Program-made: the position numbers and the translations under genes | DNA from: an uncultured candidatus Brocadiaceae bacterium | GTDB taxonomy: Bacteria > Planctomycetota > UBA1135 > UBA2386 | Direction of reading: 5' to 3' | DNA: 64,000 bases | Assembly (NCBI GenBank): GCA_964542765.1 | Contig: CAZIVO010000003.1 | Coordinates: 11,381-75,380, forward strand | The notes under the pieces: generated by a model | What the model was told of the DNA's origin: nothing | The model's input: the letters and a program-made list of their open reading frames with translations, nothing else | The model's database searches: none | In this document: positions 50,973 to 63,740 of the stretch, one piece after another | How the letters are laid out: every line of letters starts with the position of its first letter | Position numbering within the stretch: position 1 is the first letter of the stretch

Positions 50973-51974
50973 TCACACCACGAAGAGTTCATTGCCGCCG
51001 GCCAGGGCAGCATCGAGGAGGGCGATGTTCGACGGAGCCTTATCGTCTTCGCTGCCATGGACGAGGTGTCCGAATCTCAGACGTCTGAGGGCGAGATAGA
51101 CCAGTGCTGCTCGCAGCCCCCATTCCATCCGGACCCGCTCCGAACCGATTCGTGCACCGAAGTAACGCTGTAGCAAGGAGTGCTTCCAGTCGGGCGATCG
51201 TGTGCTGTGGATCCAGAACCATGCAAAATCATGGTCCTCATTGCCGATTCCGATTCGTTCAAAGTCGAGGAGGAATGGCTGCCCCTCCTCGTTGACAAGG
51301 AGGTTTTCCTCGGTGAAGTCTCCGTGCACGACGACTTGTTCCCGTGACTCGATCCAGCGAAGCGCTTCCTTGTAGAAATCCTGGCAGCGTGACCAGCGTT
51401 GCTCACCGATCGCCAGGATGAGGACCTCATACATCAACCGAACGCGCTCGAGATAGCTGATCGGATCCCATCGATTGAGCGGGAAGTGGCGCCGCCCGAT
51501 CAGGGATTCCGGGGAAATCTGTCGGAGTTTGGTGAGCAGTTCGAAGACGTGATCCTGCCCCAGGATTTCTTCAGCTGGCCCGACCGCTCCGATGACTCTC
51601 TCCAGCAGGATCCAATGCGGCGGGTCTTCGATATCGATCAGGACCGTCTTCGGCGCCGGGATGTCCTTGCGATCGGGGTCTGTGGTATCCAGGAAGCGAT
51701 AAAAGGCGGCTTCCCGTCGCGGATATTCATCGAGCCGAACGCCAGCCGGATAAAATGTCCCATCCTCGGGCACGACGAAAAACTTCAGCAAGAAGGGTTC
51801 GGCAGCCGCCCCCGAACAAGGAAGCAGCAGGGAAGAGTGGCGGTCTGATCTGTAGCGGACGGACGGATCGTCATGCAGTTGCAACCCGAGTTCCTCGATA
51901 ACCGCAACTGCGGCCTCCCAATTCCGGTCAGCCGCAGCCTTGTCAGCGGGGAGATTCTCAGGAGTGTGGGACAA
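50973..51974 (-). CDS. Aminoglycoside-phosphotransferase (APH)/protein-kinase-like fold enzyme
   Basis: The catalytic loop is VVHGDFTEENLLV, followed by LLDFERIGIGNEDHDFAWF (DFE/D motif). Confidence 0.7.
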   Translation of the reverse strand: MSHTPENLPADKAAADRNWEAAVAVIEELGLQLHDDPSVRYRSDRHSSLLLPCSGAAAEPFLLKFFVVPEDGTFYPAGVRLDEYPRREAAFYRFLDTTDPDRKDIPAPKTVLIDIEDPPHWILLERVIGAVGPAEEILGQDHVFELLTKLRQISPESLIGRRHFPLNRWDPISYLERVRLMYEVLILAIGEQRWSRCQDFYKEALRWIESREQVVVHGDFTEENLLVNEEGQPFLLDFERIGIGNEDHDFAWFWIHSTRSPDWKHSLLQRYFGARIGSERVRMEWGLRAALVYLALRRLRFGHLVHGSEDDKAPSNIALLDAALAGGNELFVV

Positions 51975-51992
51975 ATCCGTGCAGCTTCCTGC

Positions 51993-53030
51993 TCACAGGA
52001 TGATGTTCGTGTGTTCGGTGGAATGGACCCGGACCCAGTGCTTCTCTTCGCCTTTTTCTTCCTCGAAGAACTGCTCGACAACGATCTTCAGAGCAGCGGC
52101 GGTCGGGGCAGCTGGGAAGCGGAACTCACGGGTTTCGAAGATCTGCAGGTAGTTTTCGCCGGTGATCTCGGCCTCGCCTTTACCGACTTCCTTGTCTGAG
52201 CCGTCGAGTTGCTGAGCCGTGAAGACAAATTTTCGGAGCGTCAGACCGGGTACGCGGTGGGCTGCCTTGTTCTCGACTTCGAGGACGATCTCTGCCCCAT
52301 CCTTGCGGCCCTCGAAACTGAAAGCAGTTGCGCAGAACTCTGCGTCATCGGGGCCGAGCATTCCGTGACGGCGGTTTTTGCGCTTGGGGCCGACGGGTTT
52401 CTTGGTCTCGGGGTCGATGGCCAGGTGCCGTTCAACCTCCGGCATGTGACATTCCACGCAGGACTTCTTTTCCTTGCCCTTGGGCCATTCCGCTCGGGTG
52501 TAGTCCCTGCCGACGGGCAACACCGGCCCGATCTTCGTCGAATGGCAGGATGCGCAAAGCCCGTTGCTACCTTCGGGGGTGAAGTGGGGAGACTTCTTGC
52601 TCGTGTGGGCTTCGGTTTCGGCTCCGAACGGGCCATGGATCTCGTCCTCGCCTAGCTTGTGGCAAGAGACGCATGTGACGCCCTCTTCGAGGATGTCGTC
52701 GCGGGTTTTCGGTTTGCGTCCGATGCGTTCGAGAACCTGATCAGGGATGTGGCAGGCGTGGCAGGATTGTGGCCGCTTCTTGTCCTTGATCGCATTCTGA
52801 TACACCGGATTTGTCCAGGCGTGGCTGTGCGCCTTGCCTTTCCATTCGTTGAACACCGCGACATGGCACTTCCCACAGCTGGCGGCGGAATCCGAGTCAG
52901 CTGCTTTGCGTGCGCAGGTGTCATGGATCGGCCGAGCTTCCCCGGGCAGCCATCCTTCATCGGGTGGCAGGAATGACAGGAGGATGACGATGCCGATGGC
53001 GGAACATGAGCTGGTGATCAGTGAGTTCAT
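51993..53030 (-). CDS. Exported penta-haem c-type cytochrome with a C-terminal non-haem domain
   Basis: Five CxxCH motifs are present: CGKCH, CHACH, CVSCH, CASCH and CVECH. There is an N-terminal signal/anchor. The last ~120 aa lack haem motifs. Confidence 0.85.
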   Translation of the reverse strand: MNSLITSSCSAIGIVILLSFLPPDEGWLPGEARPIHDTCARKAADSDSAASCGKCHVAVFNEWKGKAHSHAWTNPVYQNAIKDKKRPQSCHACHIPDQVLERIGRKPKTRDDILEEGVTCVSCHKLGEDEIHGPFGAETEAHTSKKSPHFTPEGSNGLCASCHSTKIGPVLPVGRDYTRAEWPKGKEKKSCVECHMPEVERHLAIDPETKKPVGPKRKNRRHGMLGPDDAEFCATAFSFEGRKDGAEIVLEVENKAAHRVPGLTLRKFVFTAQQLDGSDKEVGKGEAEITGENYLQIFETREFRFPAAPTAAALKIVVEQFFEEEKGEEKHWVRVHSTEHTNIIL

Positions 53031-53308
53031 GGATCATCAGGATAGCCGGTGTGCCAGATGTATCCATTGGTGCGGGGGATCGATTTCGGTCTTTGCTGCC
53101 TCGCATCACCAGTCCGGATCACGCCCCCTTCAAGAAGAGATGCCGACCGGTCGAAGACCGAGTAGACGAAGCGATGAAGCAACTTGACCACGCCATCGGG
53201 TTCTCCCGAGGATTTGCTGGCCCGTATCGAGCGCATGGTAGGGGCCGCGAAGGCATCGAAATTGGGGGGAGAGGCGCTGCGGGGTGAGATGATCCGGTGA
53301 CGTCGAGG

Positions 53309-54610
53309 TCAGTCTCGGCGTTCGAAGCTGCCTACCCACAGATCCTTGAGATAGGGGAGTTCGGCCGAAAAGCTTGTGGGGTAGAAGCCCGAGGTCGCGA
53401 GCCATTTGCAGAGCTTGCTGGCGGTGATGGCGTGGCGTGTTCGGGGGCGGCGCGTGAGAGATTGGGTCAGTCTTCGCTGGAAGCCATGGGTCGAGATCGG
53501 GTGGAAGAAGGAAACTACCAGGAAGCGCCCGGCTACACGGCAGGCCTCGGCGAGGACATCGCGGGCATCCGCCGGTGGCAGGTGATGGAGGAAGCGGAAG
53601 AGGACAACGCCATCGACACCGCGATCTCCGATGGGAAGACGGGTCATGTCCGCTAGCAGCAGCGGGTCTTTTGAGGGAAGTCCGGCACGGAGCATGCTCA
53701 CCGAACGATCGAGCCCGATGCGACGGACCTTCAGGTCATCGAGTGTCGGCCCGAGGCGGCCGGTGCCGCACGGCGCGTCGAGGACCATCTCGCCGGGTTC
53801 TCCGGGCCACACCCTGCGTAGACAGGCCAGTTCGCGTGCCGTGCGCCCAGGATTGCGCGATCGATACGATGTGCTCTTGCCGGGTGCGTCGTAGCGCGTA
53901 TGCGTGTCGAGTGGGGGCAGGCGGGAGAGGAGCTTGCGAGTTCGGGTCTGGAATCCTGCAGCCTTGCACAGGCGTGCGGCAAAGCCCATCGCCTGCCGCG
54001 GTGTGATGGGGTGACTCCTCAGGCTGCGACGGAAATGCTTGAGGATGCGGGTGAGATCGCGATTGCGAGGTTTTCGCAGGCTGCCGTTGTGCAGGTCGAG
54101 GATGGCAAGCTTTGTCCCACCCGCCTGGATGTAGACGTGGTCAGCCGAGGAGTCCGGGAGGATGAGGCCATCGAACAGGGCTTTCCCGACGAAGCGAGCG
54201 ATCTCGTGGGCGGTCTGTCGTCCGCAGCGGCCGGCTTCGATGGCTTCGCGCATGGTTTCGCCGGGGAGTTCGGCGCACAGGTAGAAGGAAGAGGCTCGGC
54301 GCTGGCCGATCGCGACAGGTCGAGCGGTCTCGATCCCGTGTCGTAGCAAGGCCTCGGCCATCTTGCATTCTCGTTGCCCATCGAGATTGCTGTGCGGTGC
54401 GGTGAGCCGGGACCGAAGACGGTTCTTGAACTGGGTCCGGTGAAAAATTTTCAGGTACCAGTTCCTCGATCCCCGGGTGATTTTGCGAACCTCGCGGAAT
54501 CGATTAGGTGGGGCGGCGAGGTCGGAAGCCATCGCCAGGGTTGCCTCGAGTCCGGGAAAGAGCTCGCGCTCCTGCTCGTCTGCTTGCAGTAGGTTCCAGA
54601 ACTCACTCAT
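53309..54610 (-). CDS. Fusion protein: N-terminal Kdo/WaaP-type lipopolysaccharide-kinase-like domain plus C-terminal class I SAM methyltransferase
   Basis: The N-half WYLKIFHRTQFKNRLRSRL...AILDLHNGSL is like the InaA/Kdo-kinase family. The C-half reads VLDAPCGTGRLGPTL...VDGVVLFRFLHHL. Confidence 0.6.
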   Translation of the reverse strand: MSEFWNLLQADEQERELFPGLEATLAMASDLAAPPNRFREVRKITRGSRNWYLKIFHRTQFKNRLRSRLTAPHSNLDGQRECKMAEALLRHGIETARPVAIGQRRASSFYLCAELPGETMREAIEAGRCGRQTAHEIARFVGKALFDGLILPDSSADHVYIQAGGTKLAILDLHNGSLRKPRNRDLTRILKHFRRSLRSHPITPRQAMGFAARLCKAAGFQTRTRKLLSRLPPLDTHTRYDAPGKSTSYRSRNPGRTARELACLRRVWPGEPGEMVLDAPCGTGRLGPTLDDLKVRRIGLDRSVSMLRAGLPSKDPLLLADMTRLPIGDRGVDGVVLFRFLHHLPPADARDVLAEACRVAGRFLVVSFFHPISTHGFQRRLTQSLTRRPRTRHAITASKLCKWLATSGFYPTSFSAELPYLKDLWVGSFERRD

Positions 54611-54654
54611 GCTAGGTCTTTTATCCGAGGGCTCGGCCGGGGATCATCCCATTG

Positions 54655-55908
54655 ATGTCTGCGAAGATGCCAAAGCCCTCCACGGACCGTAACCTGATCG
54701 CAAAGTTGCCGAAGGCGGATCTGCATCTCCATCTCGATGGCAGCATGCGCCTGTCTTCGTTGATCGAACTCGCGGCCGAGCGCAAGGTCAAACTCCCGAG
54801 TTCGACACCCGAAGGCCTCCTCCGGACGGTGTTCAAGAGAGCCTACAAGAACTTGCCGGAGTATCTGAAGGGTTTCGAGTTCACGGTGGCCTGCTTGCAA
54901 GATGCGGAGTCTCTCGAGCGCGCCGCTTATGAGCTCTGTCAGGATTGCCGCGACGAGAATGTGTTCTACGTCGAGATCCGATTTGCACCGCAGCTTCACT
55001 GTCGTGGTGATTTTGATGTTCGCGCGGTCTTGAAGGCTGTTTCCAAGGGGATGCGCCGTGCACAGCGGGAGATCAATCGGCCGGCAGCGGTCCGCGATGG
55101 TCGGGTGCCCCGGTTCGAGTGTGGGATCATCGTCTGTGCTCTGCGTTACTTCGAACCCTTCTTCTCCGAGCATTACAGGGCTTACTTCGAAGTCTTGCGA
55201 GCAACCCCGCGGGAAGGCATCTACGGTCTGGCGTCCCTGGAACTTGCACGGGCAGCGGTCCAAGCGGTCGAAGAAGATGGCCTGCCGATCGTCGGGCTGG
55301 ACCTCGCAGGTCAGGAGAGGGGCTTCCCGGCGAAGGACCACCAGGAGGCTTATCAACTGGCTCATGACCATTTCCTTGGGAAGACGGTTCACGCCGGTGA
55401 GGACTACGGGCCGGAATCGATCTTTCAGGCGATCACGGATTGCCATGCGGATCGGATCGGTCATGGCACCTGGCTGTTCTCGGCGCGCCACATCCATGAC
55501 CGTTCGATTCGAGACCGTCGCCACTACGTCGAACAACTCATCCGCTACGTCGCGGACCGGCGGATCACCCTCGAGGTTTGCTTGACGAGCAACCAGCAGA
55601 CGATCCCCGAGTTCCGAAAAGATCTCTCGCGGCATCCCTTCCGGCTCATGCGCAAAGCTCGCCTCAGCGTGGCCCTTTGCACGGACAATCGACTGGTGTC
55701 GCGAACGACCATGACCGATGAGGTCGTCAAGGCCGTGGATACCTTCAAGCTGAGTCCGAAGGAGTTGAAGAACATCCTGATCTACGGTTTCAAGCGGTCC
55801 TTCTACCCAGGCTCTTATCGAGAGAAGCGGGAATACATCCGTTCCGTGCTCGATTACATGGAAGCGGAGATGGCCGAGCACGGCTTCGATCTCCGTGGAG
55901 GCGGGTAG
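54655..55908 (+). CDS. add: Adenosine/adenine deaminase-family metallohydrolase
   Basis: Motifs found: LPKADLHLHLDGS, GLDLAGQE, HAGE, RIGHG, EVCLTSN and LCTDN. Confidence 0.9.
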   Translation: MSAKMPKPSTDRNLIAKLPKADLHLHLDGSMRLSSLIELAAERKVKLPSSTPEGLLRTVFKRAYKNLPEYLKGFEFTVACLQDAESLERAAYELCQDCRDENVFYVEIRFAPQLHCRGDFDVRAVLKAVSKGMRRAQREINRPAAVRDGRVPRFECGIIVCALRYFEPFFSEHYRAYFEVLRATPREGIYGLASLELARAAVQAVEEDGLPIVGLDLAGQERGFPAKDHQEAYQLAHDHFLGKTVHAGEDYGPESIFQAITDCHADRIGHGTWLFSARHIHDRSIRDRRHYVEQLIRYVADRRITLEVCLTSNQQTIPEFRKDLSRHPFRLMRKARLSVALCTDNRLVSRTTMTDEVVKAVDTFKLSPKELKNILIYGFKRSFYPGSYREKREYIRSVLDYMEAEMAEHGFDLRGGG

Positions 55909-55950
55909 GCTCGGAGCTTCCGAGGGAAGGAGATCGGCAAGGCTTGCCCG

Positions 55951-57438
55951 CTACCCGAGGATGGCGGCCGCGGCCAGGGCTCCAGGGCCGCAGGTGATGC
56001 CGCCGCCGGGATGACTGCCGCTGCCACCGAGCCAGAGCCCTTTCACCGGCGTTGCGAAGCGGGCACAGGAGGCCAGCGGTCGCAGCCACCACATCTGGTC
56101 GAGGGCGTGTTCGCCGTGATGGAGGTGCCCACCGGTCAGGCCGTATCGCTGCGAGAGGTCGTTCGGAGTGAGTAACTCATGGCCGACGATGCGATCGCGA
56201 AGGCTGGGCGCGAATTCCGCGAGCCGTTCGATGATGGCCTTGGTCAAGGTTGCCCGCGCGGTTTCGTCCCAGCCGCCTTCGCGTTCTTGCGGCACGAACT
56301 GTGCCAGGATCGAGACGGTGGGTTTGTCGGTTTCGCCGTGGACCCGGATGTCGAGGTAAGGATGGTCGGAGAAGTTCCGGTACTTGATGGCATCGAAGGC
56401 TCGTTCGAGGCTGTCGAGATCCTCGCCGATCCGGATCTTCGAGAAGGATGCGCCAGGGCGTGAGGCGAACTCGAGAGGACCATCGAGGGCGAGATGCAGC
56501 TTCGCGGCGGTGCCGCGACAGCGCCAGTGGGCGATGTCCTGGCCGATACCCGGGGGAAGGTCCGTCGGACGGATCAAGCACGAGAAGGTGCTGCGAGGAT
56601 CGGTTGTGGCCACCAACTGTGTCGCGGTGAGGCGTTCGCCGGTCCCGAGTTCGACGCCGACTTGCTCGCCGCGTTCCACCAGAATGCGTTGCACGGTAGC
56701 GCTGGTGCGGATCTCCACTCCCGAAGCCTGGCAGGCTGCGAGCAGGGCGCGGATGAGCGCCGGTGAGCCACCTGCGACCTCGGCGCCCTCCGAGCATGCA
56801 TGCATCAGCAAGAGGGCGGCGGTGCCTGCCGAGCGCGGCCCGCACCAGGTGGAGGCCAGGGCTGGTGCGGCCAGGGTTGCCTTGAGGTGCTGGTCATCGA
56901 AATGCTCGTCGAGCCAGTCCGCGACCGACATCGGTGCGATCCGGAGCAGTTCGTGCATGGTTTTCGGCCCGAGCCTGCGCAGGCCCCAAGCCTTCCTGGC
57001 GAGTGCCCAGGTTTGACGGAAACCCTGCGGGGCGATGTGCGGTGGGGGTTCCCGCAGAAGGCGGCTGACGAAGGGTTTGACCTCGCCGATGAAGCGGTCG
57101 AACCGGGCGAACTGTTCGGCATCGGTGCCGGCGAGTTCCGAGAGCAGCAAACCCGGTCCTTCACGGGTGGGAGCGAAGACGGGCGCGGGGTCCGCGTATT
57201 CCAGTCCGTGACGAGTCAGCCCGAGTTTGTCGATGACGTTTTTGTGGATGTGACTCGTGTCATGAAGGATGCCGGGCGTGTGGTAACCGGGATGGAACTC
57301 CGTCGAGGTCGCGAGCCCGCCGCACCGATCAAGATGTTCGAGCACCAGCACCTTGCGCCCCTGCCGGGCCAGCAGGGCAGCGCAGGTGAGGCCGTTGTGG
57401 CCGCCGCCGATGATGATGGTGTCGTGGTTGTGTGCCAT
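55951..57438 (-). CDS. CrtI/phytoene-desaturase-family NAD(P)/FAD-dependent oxidoreductase (paralogue B)
   Basis: The dinucleotide fold is IIIGGGHNGLTCAALLARQGRKVLVLE. The C-terminal motif is LWLGGSGSHPGGGITCGPG. Confidence 0.8.
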   Translation of the reverse strand: MAHNHDTIIIGGGHNGLTCAALLARQGRKVLVLEHLDRCGGLATSTEFHPGYHTPGILHDTSHIHKNVIDKLGLTRHGLEYADPAPVFAPTREGPGLLLSELAGTDAEQFARFDRFIGEVKPFVSRLLREPPPHIAPQGFRQTWALARKAWGLRRLGPKTMHELLRIAPMSVADWLDEHFDDQHLKATLAAPALASTWCGPRSAGTAALLLMHACSEGAEVAGGSPALIRALLAACQASGVEIRTSATVQRILVERGEQVGVELGTGERLTATQLVATTDPRSTFSCLIRPTDLPPGIGQDIAHWRCRGTAAKLHLALDGPLEFASRPGASFSKIRIGEDLDSLERAFDAIKYRNFSDHPYLDIRVHGETDKPTVSILAQFVPQEREGGWDETARATLTKAIIERLAEFAPSLRDRIVGHELLTPNDLSQRYGLTGGHLHHGEHALDQMWWLRPLASCARFATPVKGLWLGGSGSHPGGGITCGPGALAAAAILG

Positions 57439-57444
57439 CTCCGG

Positions 57445-59025
57445 TCAGCCCTTCTCCAGGATGGCGCGAGCTGCGTTTGCGCCGGGCGCGCCCATGATGC
57501 CGCCACCGGGGTGGGAGCCCGAGGCGGCGAGCCAGAGATTCGAGATGGGGGTGCTGTGTCGTGCCCACCGCGGCGCCGGGCGCAGGAAGAATAGTTGTTC
57601 GAGACTCAGTTCACCGTGGAAGATATTGCCCTGCGTCAGCCCATACTCACGATCCAGGTCCCAGGGGGTCAGGACCTGTCGGTGCAGGATCGATTCCTTC
57701 AAGGTGGGGCAATACTCGGCGAGAGTGTCGATGACAGCATCGCCAAATTCTTCACGCCGAGCGGGCCAGGTCTCGGCACCTTCCTTGAGGGCGAAGGGTG
57801 CGTATTGCACGAAGATGGACATGACATGCTTGCCGGGCGGAGCGACGCTCGGGTCGCTGAGCGATGGGATCACGACATTGAGGTAGGGCCGCTTGCTGAA
57901 GTCGCCGTATTTGGCTTCGTCGTAGGCGCGCTCGAGGTAGTCGATGGACGGGGCGATCGCGATATCGCCGCGAAGGTGCGGACCATTTCCCGGTCGGCAG
58001 GTAAATTCCGGCAACCGGTCCAGGGCGAGGTTCACCTTGCCCGAACTGCCGCGCATCTTGAACCGGGTGATGTGCTCGGCGAACTCGGGATCGAGATGCT
58101 CCTCGCCGACCAGTCCCAGGAATGTTCGGTGAGGGTCGACGCCCGACACCACGTGCTTGGCGCGAATCTCTTCACCATGTTCGAGGACGACGCCGACGGC
58201 GCGGCCACCTTCGACGAGCACTTTTTCTACAGGTGATTCGGTGAGGATCTTTGCGCCGTGACGCTGGGCGGCGCTGGCGATGGCCATCGAGATCTGGCCG
58301 GTGCCTCCTCGGCAGAATCCCCATGAGCGGAAAGAGCCGTCGATTTCGCCCATGTAGTGGTGCAAGAGGACGTAGGCCGTGCCCGGTGAGCGGACTCCCA
58401 GGAAGGTTCCGATGATGCCGCTGACGCTCATGGTCGCCTTCAGGGTTTCGGATTCGAACCACTGATCGAGGAAGTCCACGGCACTCATCGTGAACATCTT
58501 CAGCTTGAGCACGCGGTCGGCCTCGGTGAACCGATCGAAGACCTTGAGAAGGCTCAGGTTCTCCAGCAAACGGCCTGGATGCCATGAAGACGGGTCGGGT
58601 GGCACCATTTCGATGATCGGCTTGATCAGGCGACTCACCTTTCCCATGGCCTTGCCAAACTCGCGATATGCTTCCGCGTCGCGCTTGCTGAAGCGGGAGA
58701 TCTCCCGCCGGGTCCGCTCTGCGTCGCCCCAGCGTGCGAGGGAGTCGCCGTTCGGCAAGGGTGTGAAGGAGCAGTCCAGCGGCAGGATTTCGAGGCCGTG
58801 CTTGGCCAGTTCGAGATCGCGGATGATGTGGGGGCGCAGCAGGCTGACCACGTAACTGCAGGCCGAGTATTTGAAGCCGGGGAGGTGTTCCTCGGTTACC
58901 GCGGCCCCACCCAACAGGTGCCGGCTCTCGAGCACCGTCACTCGCAGTCCGGCCTTGGCGAGGTAGGCCGCGCAGGTGAGGCCGTTGTGGCCGCCACCGA
59001 TCACCACGACATCCGCGGTCGTCAT
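57445..59025 (-). CDS. CrtI/phytoene-desaturase-family NAD(P)/FAD-dependent oxidoreductase (paralogue A)
   Basis: ATG 59025 (MTTADVVVIGGGHNGLTCAAYLAKAGLRVTVLE) overlaps the upstream stop as ATGA. The C-terminal motif is LWLAASGSHPGGGIMGAPG. The ORF track extension to 59466 lies inside the upstream gene. Confidence 0.8.
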   Translation of the reverse strand: MTTADVVVIGGGHNGLTCAAYLAKAGLRVTVLESRHLLGGAAVTEEHLPGFKYSACSYVVSLLRPHIIRDLELAKHGLEILPLDCSFTPLPNGDSLARWGDAERTRREISRFSKRDAEAYREFGKAMGKVSRLIKPIIEMVPPDPSSWHPGRLLENLSLLKVFDRFTEADRVLKLKMFTMSAVDFLDQWFESETLKATMSVSGIIGTFLGVRSPGTAYVLLHHYMGEIDGSFRSWGFCRGGTGQISMAIASAAQRHGAKILTESPVEKVLVEGGRAVGVVLEHGEEIRAKHVVSGVDPHRTFLGLVGEEHLDPEFAEHITRFKMRGSSGKVNLALDRLPEFTCRPGNGPHLRGDIAIAPSIDYLERAYDEAKYGDFSKRPYLNVVIPSLSDPSVAPPGKHVMSIFVQYAPFALKEGAETWPARREEFGDAVIDTLAEYCPTLKESILHRQVLTPWDLDREYGLTQGNIFHGELSLEQLFFLRPAPRWARHSTPISNLWLAASGSHPGGGIMGAPGANAARAILEKG

Positions 59026-60203
59026 GCCTTCTTCCTTTCGGGGTCGAAGAAGGGGCGCTCGACAACGGTCGCGCTGACAGCACGGCGCTCGAACTCGACG
59101 GTGTGCTCGATCTTGATCATGGTTTCGAGCGAACTGAACTCGGGCTGTACGCTGGCCAGGGCCAGATATTTCTTCAGGATCGGAGACCAGGTAGTGCTGG
59201 TGGCCTGACCGACCTGCCGCTGCCCGAAATAGATGGGCAGTGCTTGGCGGCAGGCATCGGCGGGTAGAGCCGGTGGAAGCTCGTATTCGGCGTAGAGTTG
59301 CTCCAGATCTTCCCAGTCCACATCCAGCCCGACGAGATTCCAGCTGTTGCCACGAGCTTTCGCCGCTGCGAGAGCCTGTTGCCCGAGGAAAGGTCCGCGG
59401 TCGAGTTCGACGGTCCAGCCGAGCCCGAGTTCGAAGGGCGTCGATTTGCGCGATTCTACCGCGCATTGTGGCGCGCTGAAGTAGTCGACACCCTGGAGGA
59501 CGAAGCCCGCTTCGATGCGCGTGATGTCGAGTGCGTCGAGGCCGCAGGGAGAGAGTCCGAGGGGTTCGCCGGCAGCGATGAGGGCATTCCAGATATCGAC
59601 CGCGGCGGCGGTCGGGAGCCAGATCTCGTATCCGAGGTCGCCGGTGTAACCGGTACGGGAGACGTCGACACCTTCGATTCGCGTGCTGGTGACGCCGAAG
59701 TAGGGCAGATGTTCGAGGTCATCGCCGAGGGCATTGACGATGATGTGGCGTGACTGCGGCCCCTGGATGGCGAGCGCGGCCAGAGATTCCGAGACATCGG
59801 TGACGGTTGCATCGAAACTCCGCGTGTGTCGATCGAGCCATCTGAACATCGGGCTTGCCGAGGTCAGGCGAAATCTGTTTTCGTCCAGGCAGGCGATCGT
59901 ACCATCATCGATGACCATGCCGGCTTCGTCGCACATGCAACTGTAGGTGACCCGGCCCGGTTTCAAGTGGGCGATGTCGCGGGTTGCGATGTAGGAGAGG
60001 AAGTCGCGGGCATCGGCCCCGACGACCTCGTACTTGAACAGGGGCGAGATATCGAGCAGCCCGGCCGCGCTGCGCAAGGCGTGGTACTCGGGCTCTGCCG
60101 AGGTGCCGTAGCGGCATACCGCCAGGAAGCCTGCCCACTCCTTCCACTGGTGGCTTTCGCACAACGGCGCGGTGCACGCGTGGAAGGGACTGGGGACGGG
60201 CAT
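59022..60203 (-). CDS. GcvT-family folate-binding aminomethyltransferase-like protein
   Basis: EYHALRSAAGLLDISPLFKYEVVGADARDFLSYIATRDI...GRVTYSCMCDEAGMVIDDG...TGYTGDLGYEIW is the canonical GcvT/DmdA-family pattern. Confidence 0.8.
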   Translation of the reverse strand: MPVPSPFHACTAPLCESHQWKEWAGFLAVCRYGTSAEPEYHALRSAAGLLDISPLFKYEVVGADARDFLSYIATRDIAHLKPGRVTYSCMCDEAGMVIDDGTIACLDENRFRLTSASPMFRWLDRHTRSFDATVTDVSESLAALAIQGPQSRHIIVNALGDDLEHLPYFGVTSTRIEGVDVSRTGYTGDLGYEIWLPTAAAVDIWNALIAAGEPLGLSPCGLDALDITRIEAGFVLQGVDYFSAPQCAVESRKSTPFELGLGWTVELDRGPFLGQQALAAAKARGNSWNLVGLDVDWEDLEQLYAEYELPPALPADACRQALPIYFGQRQVGQATSTTWSPILKKYLALASVQPEFSSLETMIKIEHTVEFERRAVSATVVERPFFDPERKKA

Positions 60204-60264
60204 GGGCGCCGAAGGTTAGCGATCCGCCAGTCGCCTGACAAATGAGAGCTTGGCTCCCACCGGT

Positions 60265-63200
60265 CTATCGGTCCGACTTCGAGGAACGCTTGCGCAGCAG
60301 CTTCGCGACCCGCGGGCGATCGCGCTGCATGCGCTCCAGGTCGAGCGAGCGTCCGATTGCGTTGCCGAGGAAACCGTAGAAATCCGCCAGGCCTTTGTTC
60401 CATGGCCCTGACACCACGTCCACGGGCGTCTGGCCATCGTCGTTGCGCGCGCTGAGAGAAGCTCCGTGCTCCAGGAGCTGGTCGATCACCTCGTGGCGAC
60501 AGAGGAACGCTGCGCTGTGCAGTGGCGTGTTACCGTCGCGGTTCGTGCCCGAGACCTTGGCCCCCTTCTCGATCAAGAAGGCCGTGATCTCGCTGTAGCC
60601 GTAGATAGCCGCCGTACTGAGTGGGAGTGTTCCATCCTCGGGATGCCGGCCGTTGATGTTGGCCCCCGCCGAGAGCCGCCGCTTGACGCGACCCAGATTC
60701 CCGGACGCGACCACGTCCCTGAGCGAGTCCCCGCGCGGCGCGCGCTCGCGCGCAAGGCGCCTGGAAAGAGCCTTGGCCGCGGCGTTGTCCTCGACGACGT
60801 GGAAGATGAAGTCGTTGCTGAAGCGACCGCCCGGGTTCTGCACTTGCAACAGGTGCATCCCGACCGATGGCAATGTCGCCAGTTCGATCTCGACCGTCTC
60901 ATCCTCGCCAAGGTTCACGGTGCCGGATACTCGCCTTCCGTCGACGATGACCCTGGCTCCCTCGCGAATGTGTCGGCCGCTGATCGTCATCCGGCGTTTC
61001 CCGTCATGGAGGAAAGGGAACTCCTGGTGCCCTCTTTGCTTCTCGATCGGTCCCAGGGTCCAGAGCGCTGGCTGCGGATGGTCGATATCCGCCTCGGCGC
61101 CGTGCCGGGCAGTGAAGGTGCCGACGAAGCGGCCGCCCGATGCGAGCGAAACCAGCTCGGCCCGGGTGTAGGGTTTGCCACCTCCTGCGGAGTAGGTTCC
61201 GCCCGGGGATTCGGCGTCGAACTCCAGTTTCACCGTCGTGGATCTCGCACCTTTGATGAACACTCCTTCGGCCTGAAGTGTGATGCCGCCCTCGCTGGCG
61301 GACAGTTCCAGGGCATCCAGCAAGTCGCTGGTGAAGGGGTCGCTTGCGGATCTCTTGTTGAGGGTCGCTTGCCGGGCGAAGGATCCGGAGAAGCCCGTGC
61401 TGCTCTCCAGCACCATGTTCCAGACAGGGTCGAAGCGGCGGCGGCCACCCCACGAGAATCGCCAGATGCTTCGTTCGGGCTGCCCACGTTCGGCGACTCG
61501 GCGGTAGAAATCGAAGCCGATGATGTTCAGTCGCCCCTGTGGCAAGATCAGAAACCGGTCGTAGGCACCTCGCCAGGTGGGCGCGTCCATGCCGGAGCCA
61601 GGCGTGTTGGTGCTGACCAGAAACGGCATGCGGTGACAGTCTCCGCAGACATTCGGCCTGCGTTTTTTGGGATCGAGGTCACCGTCGATGTGGAACAGCT
61701 TGAATCCTTGCTTCGCGACGTTCGAAACGGCATTGGTGTAGGCGCGCTTGGGTGCCGGCGGATAAGGCACGCCGAGCAGGAACTTGGCGAGGTCATCGCG
61801 TTCGGCTGCCGTCAATGCGCCAGGTTTTCCTTCGTCGTTTTCCGGGACCATGTCCACCTGGCTCATGGTCGTCGCGAGAGCGCCGTCCACCAGATGTCGC
61901 GTGCTGCTTTCCGGAATATCAGGATTGCTGTTTGGGGGTATTTTTCGACGGATATTGGCGCTGTTGTTGCCGCCATATGGGTCCCCGGGGATGCCATCCC
62001 AGTGAAATGGAGCCGTGTCCCGCAAGCCGCGAACCGGCATGGTTGAGCGAGGCATGATCTGTTTGCCTCGGGTCACGATCGGGGTTTTCAGCACCCAGAG
62101 CAACTGGTCCGTGTGTCCATCGGGGTGGCAACTTGCACAGGAGAAGGTTTCGGTTGTGGATGCGGTTGCCTTGTTGAAGGCGATGCGTCCGCGCTTGAAT
62201 GCCGGATGGGTCGGGTCTTCCAGGGCGATGGTATGGATGACCTTTGGACGGGCGGGGTTGGAAACCTTGACCAGGGACACCGTGTTGGCGACCGCATTGA
62301 GCACCCAGGCTCGTGACGGCTTGCCACCGGAGGTCGACTCGAGGGCTATACCGCGAGGTACCGCGCCCACACCCACGCGCCCCAGCACCTTTCCGCTACC
62401 AGTATCCACCGTGAAGAGTTTGTCCGACCCGGCAGCGGACACCACCAGCACCGAGTCGTCGGCGCTGATCTCGATCGCGAACGGCGTTGCCAGGGCCTGA
62501 CCCCTCGTCGGCTGTTTCGGTGGCAAGGGCTCGAGATCGATGAACTTCGGAGTGTTGGCAGAATTGCCTTTGAAGCCGATGCTCGTGATCTGGTTCAAGA
62601 AGGCGCGGTTCTCCAGTTCTGCCAGGCCATGTTTCTCGGTGCCGGCGCGGCCGTTGACCTCGTTGCGTGCGTCGGTCTGAGCGATGAAAACACGCCCCTT
62701 GGAGTCGACAGTGAGGCCGTAGAGCAGGGTGCCAAGACTGTCGACCACTTCGACGAGCTTGTCGGTCCTGGTGTCGAAAATATACAGATCATGATCGGGA
62801 ACCCGAGGATGCTTGACGATGTCCGTGACGTGGCCGAGCGACAGGACATTGTTATTGGCGATGGAGTGCTCGTGGGCGTTGAAGGTGACCAGCTTGCCGT
62901 CCACCTTGTAACCGCCGGACAGCTGGGTCTTGTTGTTGGACTCGAAGGGGATCACGTAGAGCCGATCACCGCGGACGACGATGGCTCGAGGTTCCTGAGC
63001 CGTGATGGTGAGCCTCTTGTCCACCTTGCGTGTGGCCACGTTGATCACGGCGATCCGGTTTTCTGAAGACAGTGCGACATAGGCCTTGTCGTTACCGGCA
63101 AAGGCAATGCCCACCGGTTCGTCAAATCGGGTTGCCTTGGTTTTGGGGTCGAAGTCCTGCACCGTCGCGACGATTTGCAGGTAGGTCGGACTCGTGGAAT

Positions 63201-63516
63201 CGTTATCGATGATGCTCACCGAATCGGAGACATGATTTGCGACCCAGACTTCCTTGCCATCCGGACGTACTGCGATGCTGACCGGGTCGATGCCGACGTT
63301 GATGCGTGCGACGATGGCGCGATGACCGGTGTCGATGACATCGACCGTGTCGGCCGGCGTGTTCACCACGAAGACGTGGCCGTCGTTCACGGCGATCGGC
63401 GATGCGTGCGGACTCAGGAATGTGGGGTGGCCGATGTCGGCCGGCCCTGGCCGATCCTGAGCGGAGCCGTGGCAAGGAAGGGTGATGAGAGCCAACGCGA
63501 TCAACACTCGTGTCAT
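60265..63516 (-). CDS. Exported multidomain protein: YVTN-type beta-propeller repeats, di-haem cytochrome-c-peroxidase/MauG-like module, IPT/TIG-like domain and C-terminal ankyrin repeats
   Basis: ATG 63516 gives MTRVLIALALITLPCHGSAQ. The propeller repeats include VNTPADTVDVIDTGHRAIVARINVGIDPVSIAVRPDGKEVWVAN. The haem sites are FSCASCHPDGH and NVCGDCH, with GLRDTAPFHWDG between them. The ANK repeats include DGTLPLSTAAIYGYSEITAFLIEKGAKV and NRDGNTPLHSAAFLCRHEVIDQLLEHGASL. Confidence 0.8.
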   Translation of the reverse strand: MTRVLIALALITLPCHGSAQDRPGPADIGHPTFLSPHASPIAVNDGHVFVVNTPADTVDVIDTGHRAIVARINVGIDPVSIAVRPDGKEVWVANHVSDSVSIIDNDSTSPTYLQIVATVQDFDPKTKATRFDEPVGIAFAGNDKAYVALSSENRIAVINVATRKVDKRLTITAQEPRAIVVRGDRLYVIPFESNNKTQLSGGYKVDGKLVTFNAHEHSIANNNVLSLGHVTDIVKHPRVPDHDLYIFDTRTDKLVEVVDSLGTLLYGLTVDSKGRVFIAQTDARNEVNGRAGTEKHGLAELENRAFLNQITSIGFKGNSANTPKFIDLEPLPPKQPTRGQALATPFAIEISADDSVLVVSAAGSDKLFTVDTGSGKVLGRVGVGAVPRGIALESTSGGKPSRAWVLNAVANTVSLVKVSNPARPKVIHTIALEDPTHPAFKRGRIAFNKATASTTETFSCASCHPDGHTDQLLWVLKTPIVTRGKQIMPRSTMPVRGLRDTAPFHWDGIPGDPYGGNNSANIRRKIPPNSNPDIPESSTRHLVDGALATTMSQVDMVPENDEGKPGALTAAERDDLAKFLLGVPYPPAPKRAYTNAVSNVAKQGFKLFHIDGDLDPKKRRPNVCGDCHRMPFLVSTNTPGSGMDAPTWRGAYDRFLILPQGRLNIIGFDFYRRVAERGQPERSIWRFSWGGRRRFDPVWNMVLESSTGFSGSFARQATLNKRSASDPFTSDLLDALELSASEGGITLQAEGVFIKGARSTTVKLEFDAESPGGTYSAGGGKPYTRAELVSLASGGRFVGTFTARHGAEADIDHPQPALWTLGPIEKQRGHQEFPFLHDGKRRMTISGRHIREGARVIVDGRRVSGTVNLGEDETVEIELATLPSVGMHLLQVQNPGGRFSNDFIFHVVEDNAAAKALSRRLARERAPRGDSLRDVVASGNLGRVKRRLSAGANINGRHPEDGTLPLSTAAIYGYSEITAFLIEKGAKVSGTNRDGNTPLHSAAFLCRHEVIDQLLEHGASLSARNDDGQTPVDVVSGPWNKGLADFYGFLGNAIGRSLDLERMQRDRPRVAKLLRKRSSKSDR

Positions 63517-63740
63517 TGCTGCCTTCCTGACGTGAGCAAAACGATGGGCTATCCGAACCCGGCGAGATCCATACCGCGGCACCGAGATATGGAAGTATGG
63601 GTTCGAACAGAAGCCCAGATTCGCTTGTTGGTGCAGCAGGCGCAAGGGTGTCAGACCCCGGACCTGTCTCAGATCTGTATTCGCGGTGTCGGGCTACAGG
63701 CCGGTTGGGGGGGAGCAAAAATTTGCGGTGGCAAGTTGTA

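Follow-up and report, generated by a model that had tools for sequence, protein, structure and literature searches.

What does a GcvT-like folate protein do when it is encoded together with two flavoproteins that resemble carotenoid desaturases? This question is raised by a locus of an uncultured candidatus Brocadiaceae bacterium (assembly GCA_964542765.1), which lies in a stretch of 64,000 nucleotides of contig CAZIVO010000003.1 (positions 11,381 to 75,380), referred to here as the window. Three consecutive genes, not fused to each other, are located on its minus strand in the order T, A, B. T (59022-60203) encodes a stand-alone GcvT-like tetrahydrofolate (THF)-binding protein of 393 amino acids (aa) without internal stops. 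A (57445-59025; 526 aa) encodes the principal flavoprotein, a member of the CrtI/amine-oxidase superfamily and probably of its CrtO/PYROXD2-like branch, and B (55951-57438; 495 aa) a second, faster-evolving paralogous flavoprotein. An earlier note, made from the sequence alone, had proposed that this trio is a split oxidative demethylase. This idea is supported by the present analysis: the trio is probably a split, folate-coupled oxidative demethylase, acting most likely on the N-methyl group of a secondary or tertiary amine, and its flavoprotein is, to judge from the sequences, most likely CrtO/PYROXD2-like instead of DAO-type. The note had also named in advance what would speak against its idea, namely a trio that is not conserved, a T that groups with genuine glycine-cleavage T proteins in a genome lacking another gcvT, and a carotenoid or lipid role of the flavoproteins. 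On each of these points the results came out in favor of a demethylase.

The reading of the locus itself was confirmed. The minus-strand operon with its coordinates, the overlap and gap at its two junctions, and the motifs GGGHNGLTCA near the N-terminus and SGSHPGGGI near the C-terminus of both A and B all held when the sequence was read again. At the T/A junction (59022-59025, minus strand), the TGA stop of T overlaps the ATG of A in the word ATGA, which suggests translational coupling of the two genes. The stop of A and the start of B are separated by the 6 nt CCGGAG (57439-57444, minus strand), of which GGAG is a ribosome-binding-like word. Short contigs from RNA libraries (97-99 % identity) overlap with each of the three genes and span the T/A junction. 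Two of the runs behind them are oligo-dT runs from a single study and a third is doubtful; with DNA carry-over being possible, these contigs are a weak hint of transcription.

The first step towards an answer is whether the three genes belong together. Relatives of T were searched among 5.8 billion proteins, which yielded thousands of matches. The best 120 are about 395 aa long and share 54-63 % identity with T, apart from one near-copy at 98 %, and stem from Planctomycetota, Acidobacteriota and other groups. With one genome taken per species, relatives of T occur in at least 596 stretches. Loci containing T were retrieved from species-representative genomes (80 loci), and neighbor analyses were conducted on 83 related loci. 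The taxonomic distribution of the retrieved loci is broad and covers Planctomycetota, Acidobacteriota, Gemmatimonadota, Chloroflexota, Bacteroidota, Zixibacteria, Krumholzibacteria, Eisenbacteria, Latescibacteria, Elusimicrobiota, Chlamydiota, Marinimicrobia, Binatia, Thermodesulfobacteriota and Burkholderiales. In all three distant contigs inspected first, T is followed by two flavoproteins with overlaps of 1-4 nt, while the flanks are unrelated. Both flavoproteins are present in 44 of the 54 loci with at least 3.5 kb on either side of T, if a flavoprotein within 400 nt of T and two flavoproteins within 2.6 kb are required. The layouts are T>A>B or B<A< >T. Since this arrangement recurs across many phyla, it is not due to chance.

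Within the phylum of the window, T has a patchy distribution, being found in 24 of 301 sampled genomes, which correspond to 22 of 238 genera and 8 % of the species. Orthologs of A (64-73 % identity) are present in every one of these 24 genomes and in no others of the sample, and they nearly always adjoin T; the genomes are kin and not independent, and no P-value is given for this co-occurrence. Conservation of the trio, which the earlier note had proposed as a check, was thus found both in the well-flanked loci and in the phylum sample. The habitat is marine: 37-95 % of the sampled words of the window recur in 17 seawater or marine metagenome DNA runs.

The second step concerns the role of T. 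It contains the domains PF01571 GCV_T (E 1.9e-65, residues 19-264) and PF08669 GCV_T_C (E 9.6e-12) and therefore has the same two-domain fold as GcvT, along with the DD motif and predicted THF binding. It differs from GcvT in its scores, which are below both model cut-offs (182.4 vs 235.85 bits for TIGR00528 and 239.8 vs 300 bits for PRK00389), in its position outside the GcvT clade and in the lack of linkage to gcvH/gcvP. Its best curated NCBIfam match is the C-terminal half of trimethylamine N-oxide (TMAO) demethylase, Tdm, with 274.6 bits. Only positions 388-760 of the 763-position Tdm model are matched, and T has no N-terminal Zn-dependent domain. Tdm is also the best solved relative of T (PDB 9q5a, E 1.4e-48), at an identity of 33-34 %.

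For the phylogenetic placement, a tree of 72 GCV_T modules was built from T relatives, NCBIfam-confirmed GcvT, Tdm, SoxA-like, DAO-fused and DmdA-like modules and stand-alone proteins encoded next to tdm, using a quick IQ-TREE search with LG+G4 and support from the Shimodaira-Hasegawa-like approximate likelihood ratio test (SH-aLRT). The T clade is monophyletic with a support of 99 and sister to the Tdm folate domain with a support of 95. It lies outside the GcvT clade, which includes the gcvT product of the same genome, is separate from the folate domains of SoxA and DMGDH, and is not near the DmdA-like branch. Since the tree search was quick and one long YgfZ-like row served as the root, the placement of the T clade as sister to the Tdm folate domain is, on these alignments, moderately established. 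As a side observation, stand-alone GcvT-like proteins of about 380-410 aa from two proteobacterial genomes form a tight clade of their own, and in one of these genomes the gene is located about 11 kb from tdm; we assume that they may be candidates for DmmD, the folate-binding protein of dimethylamine monooxygenase.

The kinship with Tdm extends to the residues that contact the folate. The C-terminal domain of Tdm binds THF with a dissociation constant of about 149 nM through R480, F582, F672 and K782, and formaldehyde arrives there via a tunnel (2026 electron cryomicroscopy study, PMC13619132). In the HMMER alignment, these four residues correspond to R75, F169, W263 and R390 of T, which are invariant or nearly so among 23 T-clade proteins. 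The DD motif (D99, D100) is likewise invariant in the T clade, and T. maritima GcvT and Tdm both have a DD at the aligned positions; in GcvT, this aspartate is the catalytic one. Two inserts, at residues 242-250 and 301-316, are specific to the T clade, being absent from the GcvT, Tdm, SoxA-like and DAO-fused modules, and may form the interface with the flavoproteins. The positions W297, E301, Y304, L309, P310 and L313 are invariant in the T clade.

The glycine cleavage system of the organism is found elsewhere. Its genome assembly (3.6 Mb, 179 contigs, 86 % complete) contains four genes of the GCV_T family. One of them is a canonical gcvT on contig C76 that passes the GcvT models at 361 and 407 bits and is followed by gcvH and then by a lipoate-protein ligase gene. 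By comparison, no GCV_H gene adjoins the trio. T is therefore not a glycine-cleavage T protein and most likely a THF-dependent one-carbon acceptor.

Two alternatives keep T in one-carbon metabolism and assign a different reaction to the trio. In the first, A and B oxidize an amine at a non-methyl carbon, such as an aminomethyl or glycine-like group, and T is a true aminomethyltransferase that releases ammonia and methylene-THF. The GcvT-like DD motif and the full two-domain architecture of T would agree with this, and the fold of A is common to amine oxidases that attack non-methyl alpha-carbons. However, the trio has no linked gene for a lipoyl carrier (H protein), either in the window or among the neighbors of the 83 related loci, and the closest characterized relative of T captures formaldehyde from a demethylation. 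This alternative is considered improbable. In the second, an S- or O-methyl group is removed, or T is a methyltransferase to THF of the DmdA/LigM kind, while the flavoproteins oxidize the demethylated product and no iminium is made. The stand-alone GcvT-family proteins DmdA, LigM and DesA are indeed methyltransferases without need of a flavoprotein, T has weak matches to their models (120 bits for DmdA, 75 for DesA and 64 for LigM), and the host is marine, where dimethylsulfoniopropionate is abundant. Nevertheless, these scores are far below the cut-offs, T is sister to the formaldehyde-capturing domain of Tdm and distant from the DmdA-like branch, and accessory genes in loci elsewhere indicate amines, such as GbcA-like Rieske oxygenases, omega-aminotransferases and polyamine-type transporters. 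Removal of a methyl group from sulfur or oxygen is therefore unlikely, and an N-methyl group remains the favored target of the proposed demethylase.

The third step concerns the flavoproteins. Both match PF01593 Amino_oxidase (A with E 1.4e-20, B with E 2e-17). Against the CrtO model NF045689, A scores 336.6 bits over its full length and B 188.3 bits at a cut-off of 1000; against the crtI_fam model TIGR02734, the scores are 136.2 and 98.9 bits at a cut-off of 238.1. Matches to the Amino_oxidase and CrtI families span the full length of A and B, whereas DAO matches are mostly limited to the N-terminal dinucleotide fold. The statement of the earlier note that the folate module is combined here with CrtI-like and not DAO-like flavoproteins is thereby borne out. 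The predicted structure of A (predicted local distance difference test, pLDDT, 85.4; predicted template modeling score, pTM, 0.86) is closest to the gamma-carotenoid desaturase 4rep (template modeling score, TM, 0.77) and to CrtI (4dgk), followed by NicA2, MAO-B and putrescine oxidase at a TM of about 0.6, all at 15-20 % identity. The fold is common to flavin amine oxidases and to CrtI/CrtD, and no close solved relative of A was present among the solved-structure matches. A prediction of the A and T complex (score 0.24, mark 0.32) was used as evidence neither way.

Since the best NCBIfam match of A over its full length is CrtO and its nearest solved folds are carotenoid desaturases, the flavoproteins could be desaturases or ketolases of the CrtO/CrtI kind that act on carotenoids, isoprenoids or lipids, with T being a mere neighbor that has no part in their reaction. 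A and B share the fold and the motifs binding flavin adenine dinucleotide (FAD) with CrtO, CrtI and CrtD, which supply their best NCBIfam and PDB matches. They differ from these enzymes in scores far below the cut-offs (336.6 vs 1000 and 136 vs 238 bits for A), in a gene context free of carotenoid genes and in being obligately linked to a folate protein. Neither the window nor the recurrent neighbors of the 83 related loci include a crt or isoprenoid gene, which answers in favor of the earlier note the question of carotenoid or lipid genes beside the flavoproteins. The linkage of T and A across many phyla and their perfect co-occurrence in the phylum sample also argue against a mere neighborhood. 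Furthermore, the genome has a pair of SQS_PSY genes on another contig with an amine-oxidase-family gene of its own: the two genes lie in tandem on contig C117 (8944-10891) and are followed by that gene, which is truncated where the contig ends. The arrangement resembles an hpnC-hpnD-hpnE squalene cluster that the assembly has broken up. The remainder of the cut gene may continue at the start of contig C1 (104-946). Finally, PYROXD2, the vertebrate protein most similar to CrtO (about 35 % identity), had no carotenoid activity in cell assays (preprint, 10.1101/2024.11.26.625526). A carotenoid or lipid function of the flavoproteins is therefore very improbable.

A and B are not equivalent. They share 36 % identity over 522 residues, and in a tree of 137 flavoproteins the 76 copies proximal to T are split from the 61 distal copies by a single branch with a support of 100. 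This indicates one old duplication into A and B, with the gene order fixed in the sample, and A is the flavoprotein nearest to T in all 76 sampled loci that have one. Orthologs of A share 60-73 % identity across phyla, with a mean column identity of 72 % and 174 columns at 95 % or more; judged by this alignment, A is under very strong constraint. Orthologs of B have a mean column identity of 48 %; in their alignment, the C-terminal columns were left out of the interpretation, the B of the window itself having SGSHPGGGI. In B, the residues that bind the dinucleotide are retained along with many structural glycines and prolines, and 60 of the 174 near-invariant columns of A are lost, which cluster at S57-I67, S202-G236 (including HHYMGEIDG), S327-G329 and N467/F469. 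On these comparisons B is not a redundant copy and would be either a partner subunit or an enzyme of other specificity, while A is the presumed catalytic subunit.

The fourth step is the gene context of related loci, for which only recurrent neighbors confirmed by Pfam were used, the clustering of open reading frames (ORFs) from the 83 loci being crude and including some shadow ORFs in GC-rich DNA. A Rieske oxygenase adjoins the trio in 26 of the 83 loci, with GbcA as the best curated match at about 229 bits (cut-off 670), and an APC-family amino-acid/amine permease is present in 13. Other neighbors are scattered amidohydrolases, pyridoxal phosphate (PLP)-dependent decarboxylases and peptidases. 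The order T, A, B, Rieske oxygenase, found in nine loci of Gemmatimonadota and related groups, is a lineage-specific extension of the unit, and in at least one of these loci a PLP-dependent decarboxylase gene directly follows that of the Rieske oxygenase. A more distant version of the unit, A'-B'-T', in which A' shares 48-50 % identity with A and T' 34-38 % with T, is located on plasmids of the cultured Alphaproteobacteria Shinella zoogloeoides ATCC 19623 (K8M09_RS20830-20840), Parasedimentitalea marina W43 (EBB79_RS23545-23555), Rhizobium sp. SL42 (IM739_RS21775-21785) and Fuscovulum ytuae YMD61 (QF092_RS19765-19775). It is accompanied by a TetR regulator, a class III aminotransferase, a polyamine-type ATP-binding cassette transporter and one or two Rieske oxygenases, and in two loci also by a large DgcA/TMADH-like flavoprotein. 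This context suggests that a methylated amine is catabolized and that its demethylation yields a primary amine, without naming the compound.

These contexts also bear on a biosynthetic direction, in which a flavin enzyme would use methylene-THF supplied by T for methylation or aminomethylation, as in ThyX, TrmFO and MnmG. Chemistry that combines flavin and methylene-THF is established for ThyX, TrmFO and MnmEG, and the window has no catabolic accessory genes. However, A and B are related to ThyX, TrmFO and MnmG only through the dinucleotide-binding fold, and related loci show features of inducible catabolism, namely the TetR regulator, uptake transporters, aminotransferases and demethylating Rieske oxygenases. 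The patchy distribution, in 8 % of the species of the phylum, fits an accessory catabolic trait as well. Biosynthesis is thus a distinctly improbable direction. The probability left after the demethylase and the four alternatives discussed here goes to something that we have not thought of.

For the oxidative demethylase, the following mechanism is proposed. The FAD of A would oxidize the N-CH3 bond to an iminium. The one-carbon unit, either as this iminium or as released formaldehyde, would then be transferred to THF held by T, yielding 5,10-methylene-THF and the demethylated amine, and the reduced FAD would be reoxidized by O2 or another acceptor. Dimethylglycine oxidase, sarcosine oxidase and TMAO demethylase likewise pass a one-carbon unit to THF. 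B could be a non-equivalent partner subunit of A, which is slightly favored, or an enzyme for a second, successive demethylation. Translational coupling and co-occurrence suggest that the three proteins are associated; a physical complex of T, A and B is an inference, as are the direction and chemistry of the reaction and the kind of substrate. The Rieske oxygenase of about a third of the related loci would fit the removal of the first methyl group from a quaternary amine upstream of the trio. Since the genome studied here, 86 % complete, yielded no match to the Rieske catalytic domain, the trio would act on a secondary or tertiary amine in this organism and not on a quaternary one.

The logic of such a demethylase is already known, and the comparison with known systems shows which parts differ. 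DMGO/DMGDH, SARDH and SoxABDG also combine a GcvT-like THF module with an FAD enzyme for a presumed N-CH3 oxidation followed by trapping on THF, and the subunits of SoxABDG are encoded separately, as in the trio. Their flavoprotein is of the DAO/MSOX lineage, however, whereas that of the trio belongs to the CrtI/CrtO/amine-oxidase lineage; the trio additionally has two paralogous flavoproteins and a free-standing T from a separate clade. Tdm is the nearest characterized relative of T, with conserved THF contacts and a domain that captures channeled formaldehyde. It differs in that it makes the formaldehyde in a fused Zn-dependent N-terminal domain without a flavin and is about 760-800 aa long, compared to 393 aa plus flavoproteins in the trio. 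No paper describing a GcvT-like protein together with CrtI-like flavoproteins was found, and the flavoprotein lineage, the paired paralogs and the free-standing Tdm-like folate protein were not found described in the literature.

Several points weigh against the proposed demethylase. The characterized members of the named families nearest to A, namely CrtO, CrtI and CrtD, act on C-C bonds of carotenoids and not on C-N bonds. Ten other genomes of the phylum encode A-like proteins at 43-49 % identity, and in all four inspected loci of this kind (four genomes, 43-47 % identity) no T, B or Rieske gene is located within about 9 kb. These solo flavoproteins look like a separate branch of the family, and it follows that a folate partner is dispensable for some members of the family. 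For dimethylglycine and sarcosine, the trio is not needed either, since the genome has a DAO-GCV_T fusion of the type found in the dehydrogenases of these two compounds. Searches with a protein query and with PF00848 revealed no Rieske partner in the 86 % complete genome, and the window offers no transporter, regulatory or downstream catabolic gene in support of a catabolic role. Finally, no biochemical datum on any member of the trio was found in the literature searched.

The surroundings of the trio within the window are as follows. The vicinity of the trio lacks H- and P-protein genes as well as genes for transporters, regulators of the unit and carotenoid enzymes, and a scan of 54400-60600 for promoters and terminators yielded nothing exceeding the shuffled expectation. 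Located 61 nt upstream of T on the same strand is a gene (60265-63645, minus strand) for a protein of 1126 aa with an N-terminal beta-propeller (YNCE/cytochrome D1-like) and C-terminal ankyrin repeats. On the other side, an adenosine-deaminase-family gene (54652-55908, plus strand; PF00962, E 8.6e-64) is convergent with B, and the unit ends after B. The minus-strand ORF 54607-55881 was rejected as a gene because it has no Pfam match and lies opposite the adenosine-deaminase-family gene; it is probably a shadow ORF. Further along, a run of three minus-strand genes (50973-54610) encodes an APH-type phosphotransferase (50973-51974), a multiheme cytochrome c of 345 aa with MtrC/NrfB-like motifs (51993-53030) and a protein of 433 aa in which a Kdo/WaaP-like kinase domain is fused to an S-adenosylmethionine-dependent methyltransferase domain (53309-54610).

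The last step leads from the bacterial locus to a human protein. Human PYROXD2, an orphan mitochondrial flavoprotein encoded by a mitochondrial disease gene, comes from the poorly understood branch to which A probably belongs as well. CrtO is the best named match of A, and PYROXD2 is reported to be the vertebrate protein closest to CrtO; the kinship between A and PYROXD2 is drawn indirectly, via CrtO and via the ESM Atlas. In the Atlas, the clusters closest to A, both in features and in shape (full-length TM 0.92-0.97), have automatic PYROXD2-type names, and one of them, with a TM of 0.95, is 95 % eukaryotic (Streptophyta). The biochemical function of PYROXD2 has been described as unknown (PMC8777681), and no paper assigning an enzymatic activity to it was found. 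Human genetic studies connect it with N-methylated amines: urinary trimethylamine and plasma dimethylamine are linked to it, in negative correlation with expression (PMC3169529), and variants associate with N-methylpipecolate (PMC5780481), N6,N6-dimethyllysine (PMC7878905) and N2-acetyl-N6,N6-dimethyllysine (PMC13352909). Tentatively, A could be the bacterial counterpart of PYROXD2, with the partnership with T revealing the chemistry of the family as flavin-dependent oxidative N-demethylation of methylated amines; this is a possibility short of a probable conclusion. Candidate substrates may then be methyl-lysines, N-methylpipecolate and compounds of the di- or trimethylamine type. A difference is that PYROXD2 has no known folate partner, whereas A is linked to T, and the solo A-like proteins mean that the gene context carries over to PYROXD2 only so far.

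Beyond the earlier note, the analysis places T nearest to the THF domain of Tdm, finds A and B to be unequal and assigns A to a CrtO/PYROXD2-like subgroup. Methylated amines such as betaines, methylamines and methylated amino acids rank among the main forms in which carbon and nitrogen circulate in sea water and soil, and known demethylases do not account for all organisms able to use them. The trio, to which no function has been assigned, is present in hundreds of species, mostly uncultured, that span many phyla; as a demethylase, it would be a widespread added route from N-methyl groups to the folate one-carbon pool. N6-methyl-lysine oxidase is an old activity for which no gene is known. If A is indeed the counterpart of PYROXD2, the trio would represent a third architecture of folate-coupled demethylases beside the DAO-type enzymes and Tdm, and would offer a testable function for PYROXD2 and possibly for activities still lacking a gene, such as this oxidase. 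The bacterial gene context thereby suggests concrete substrates and an assay for PYROXD2, whose variants control the levels of several N-methylated amines in blood and urine.

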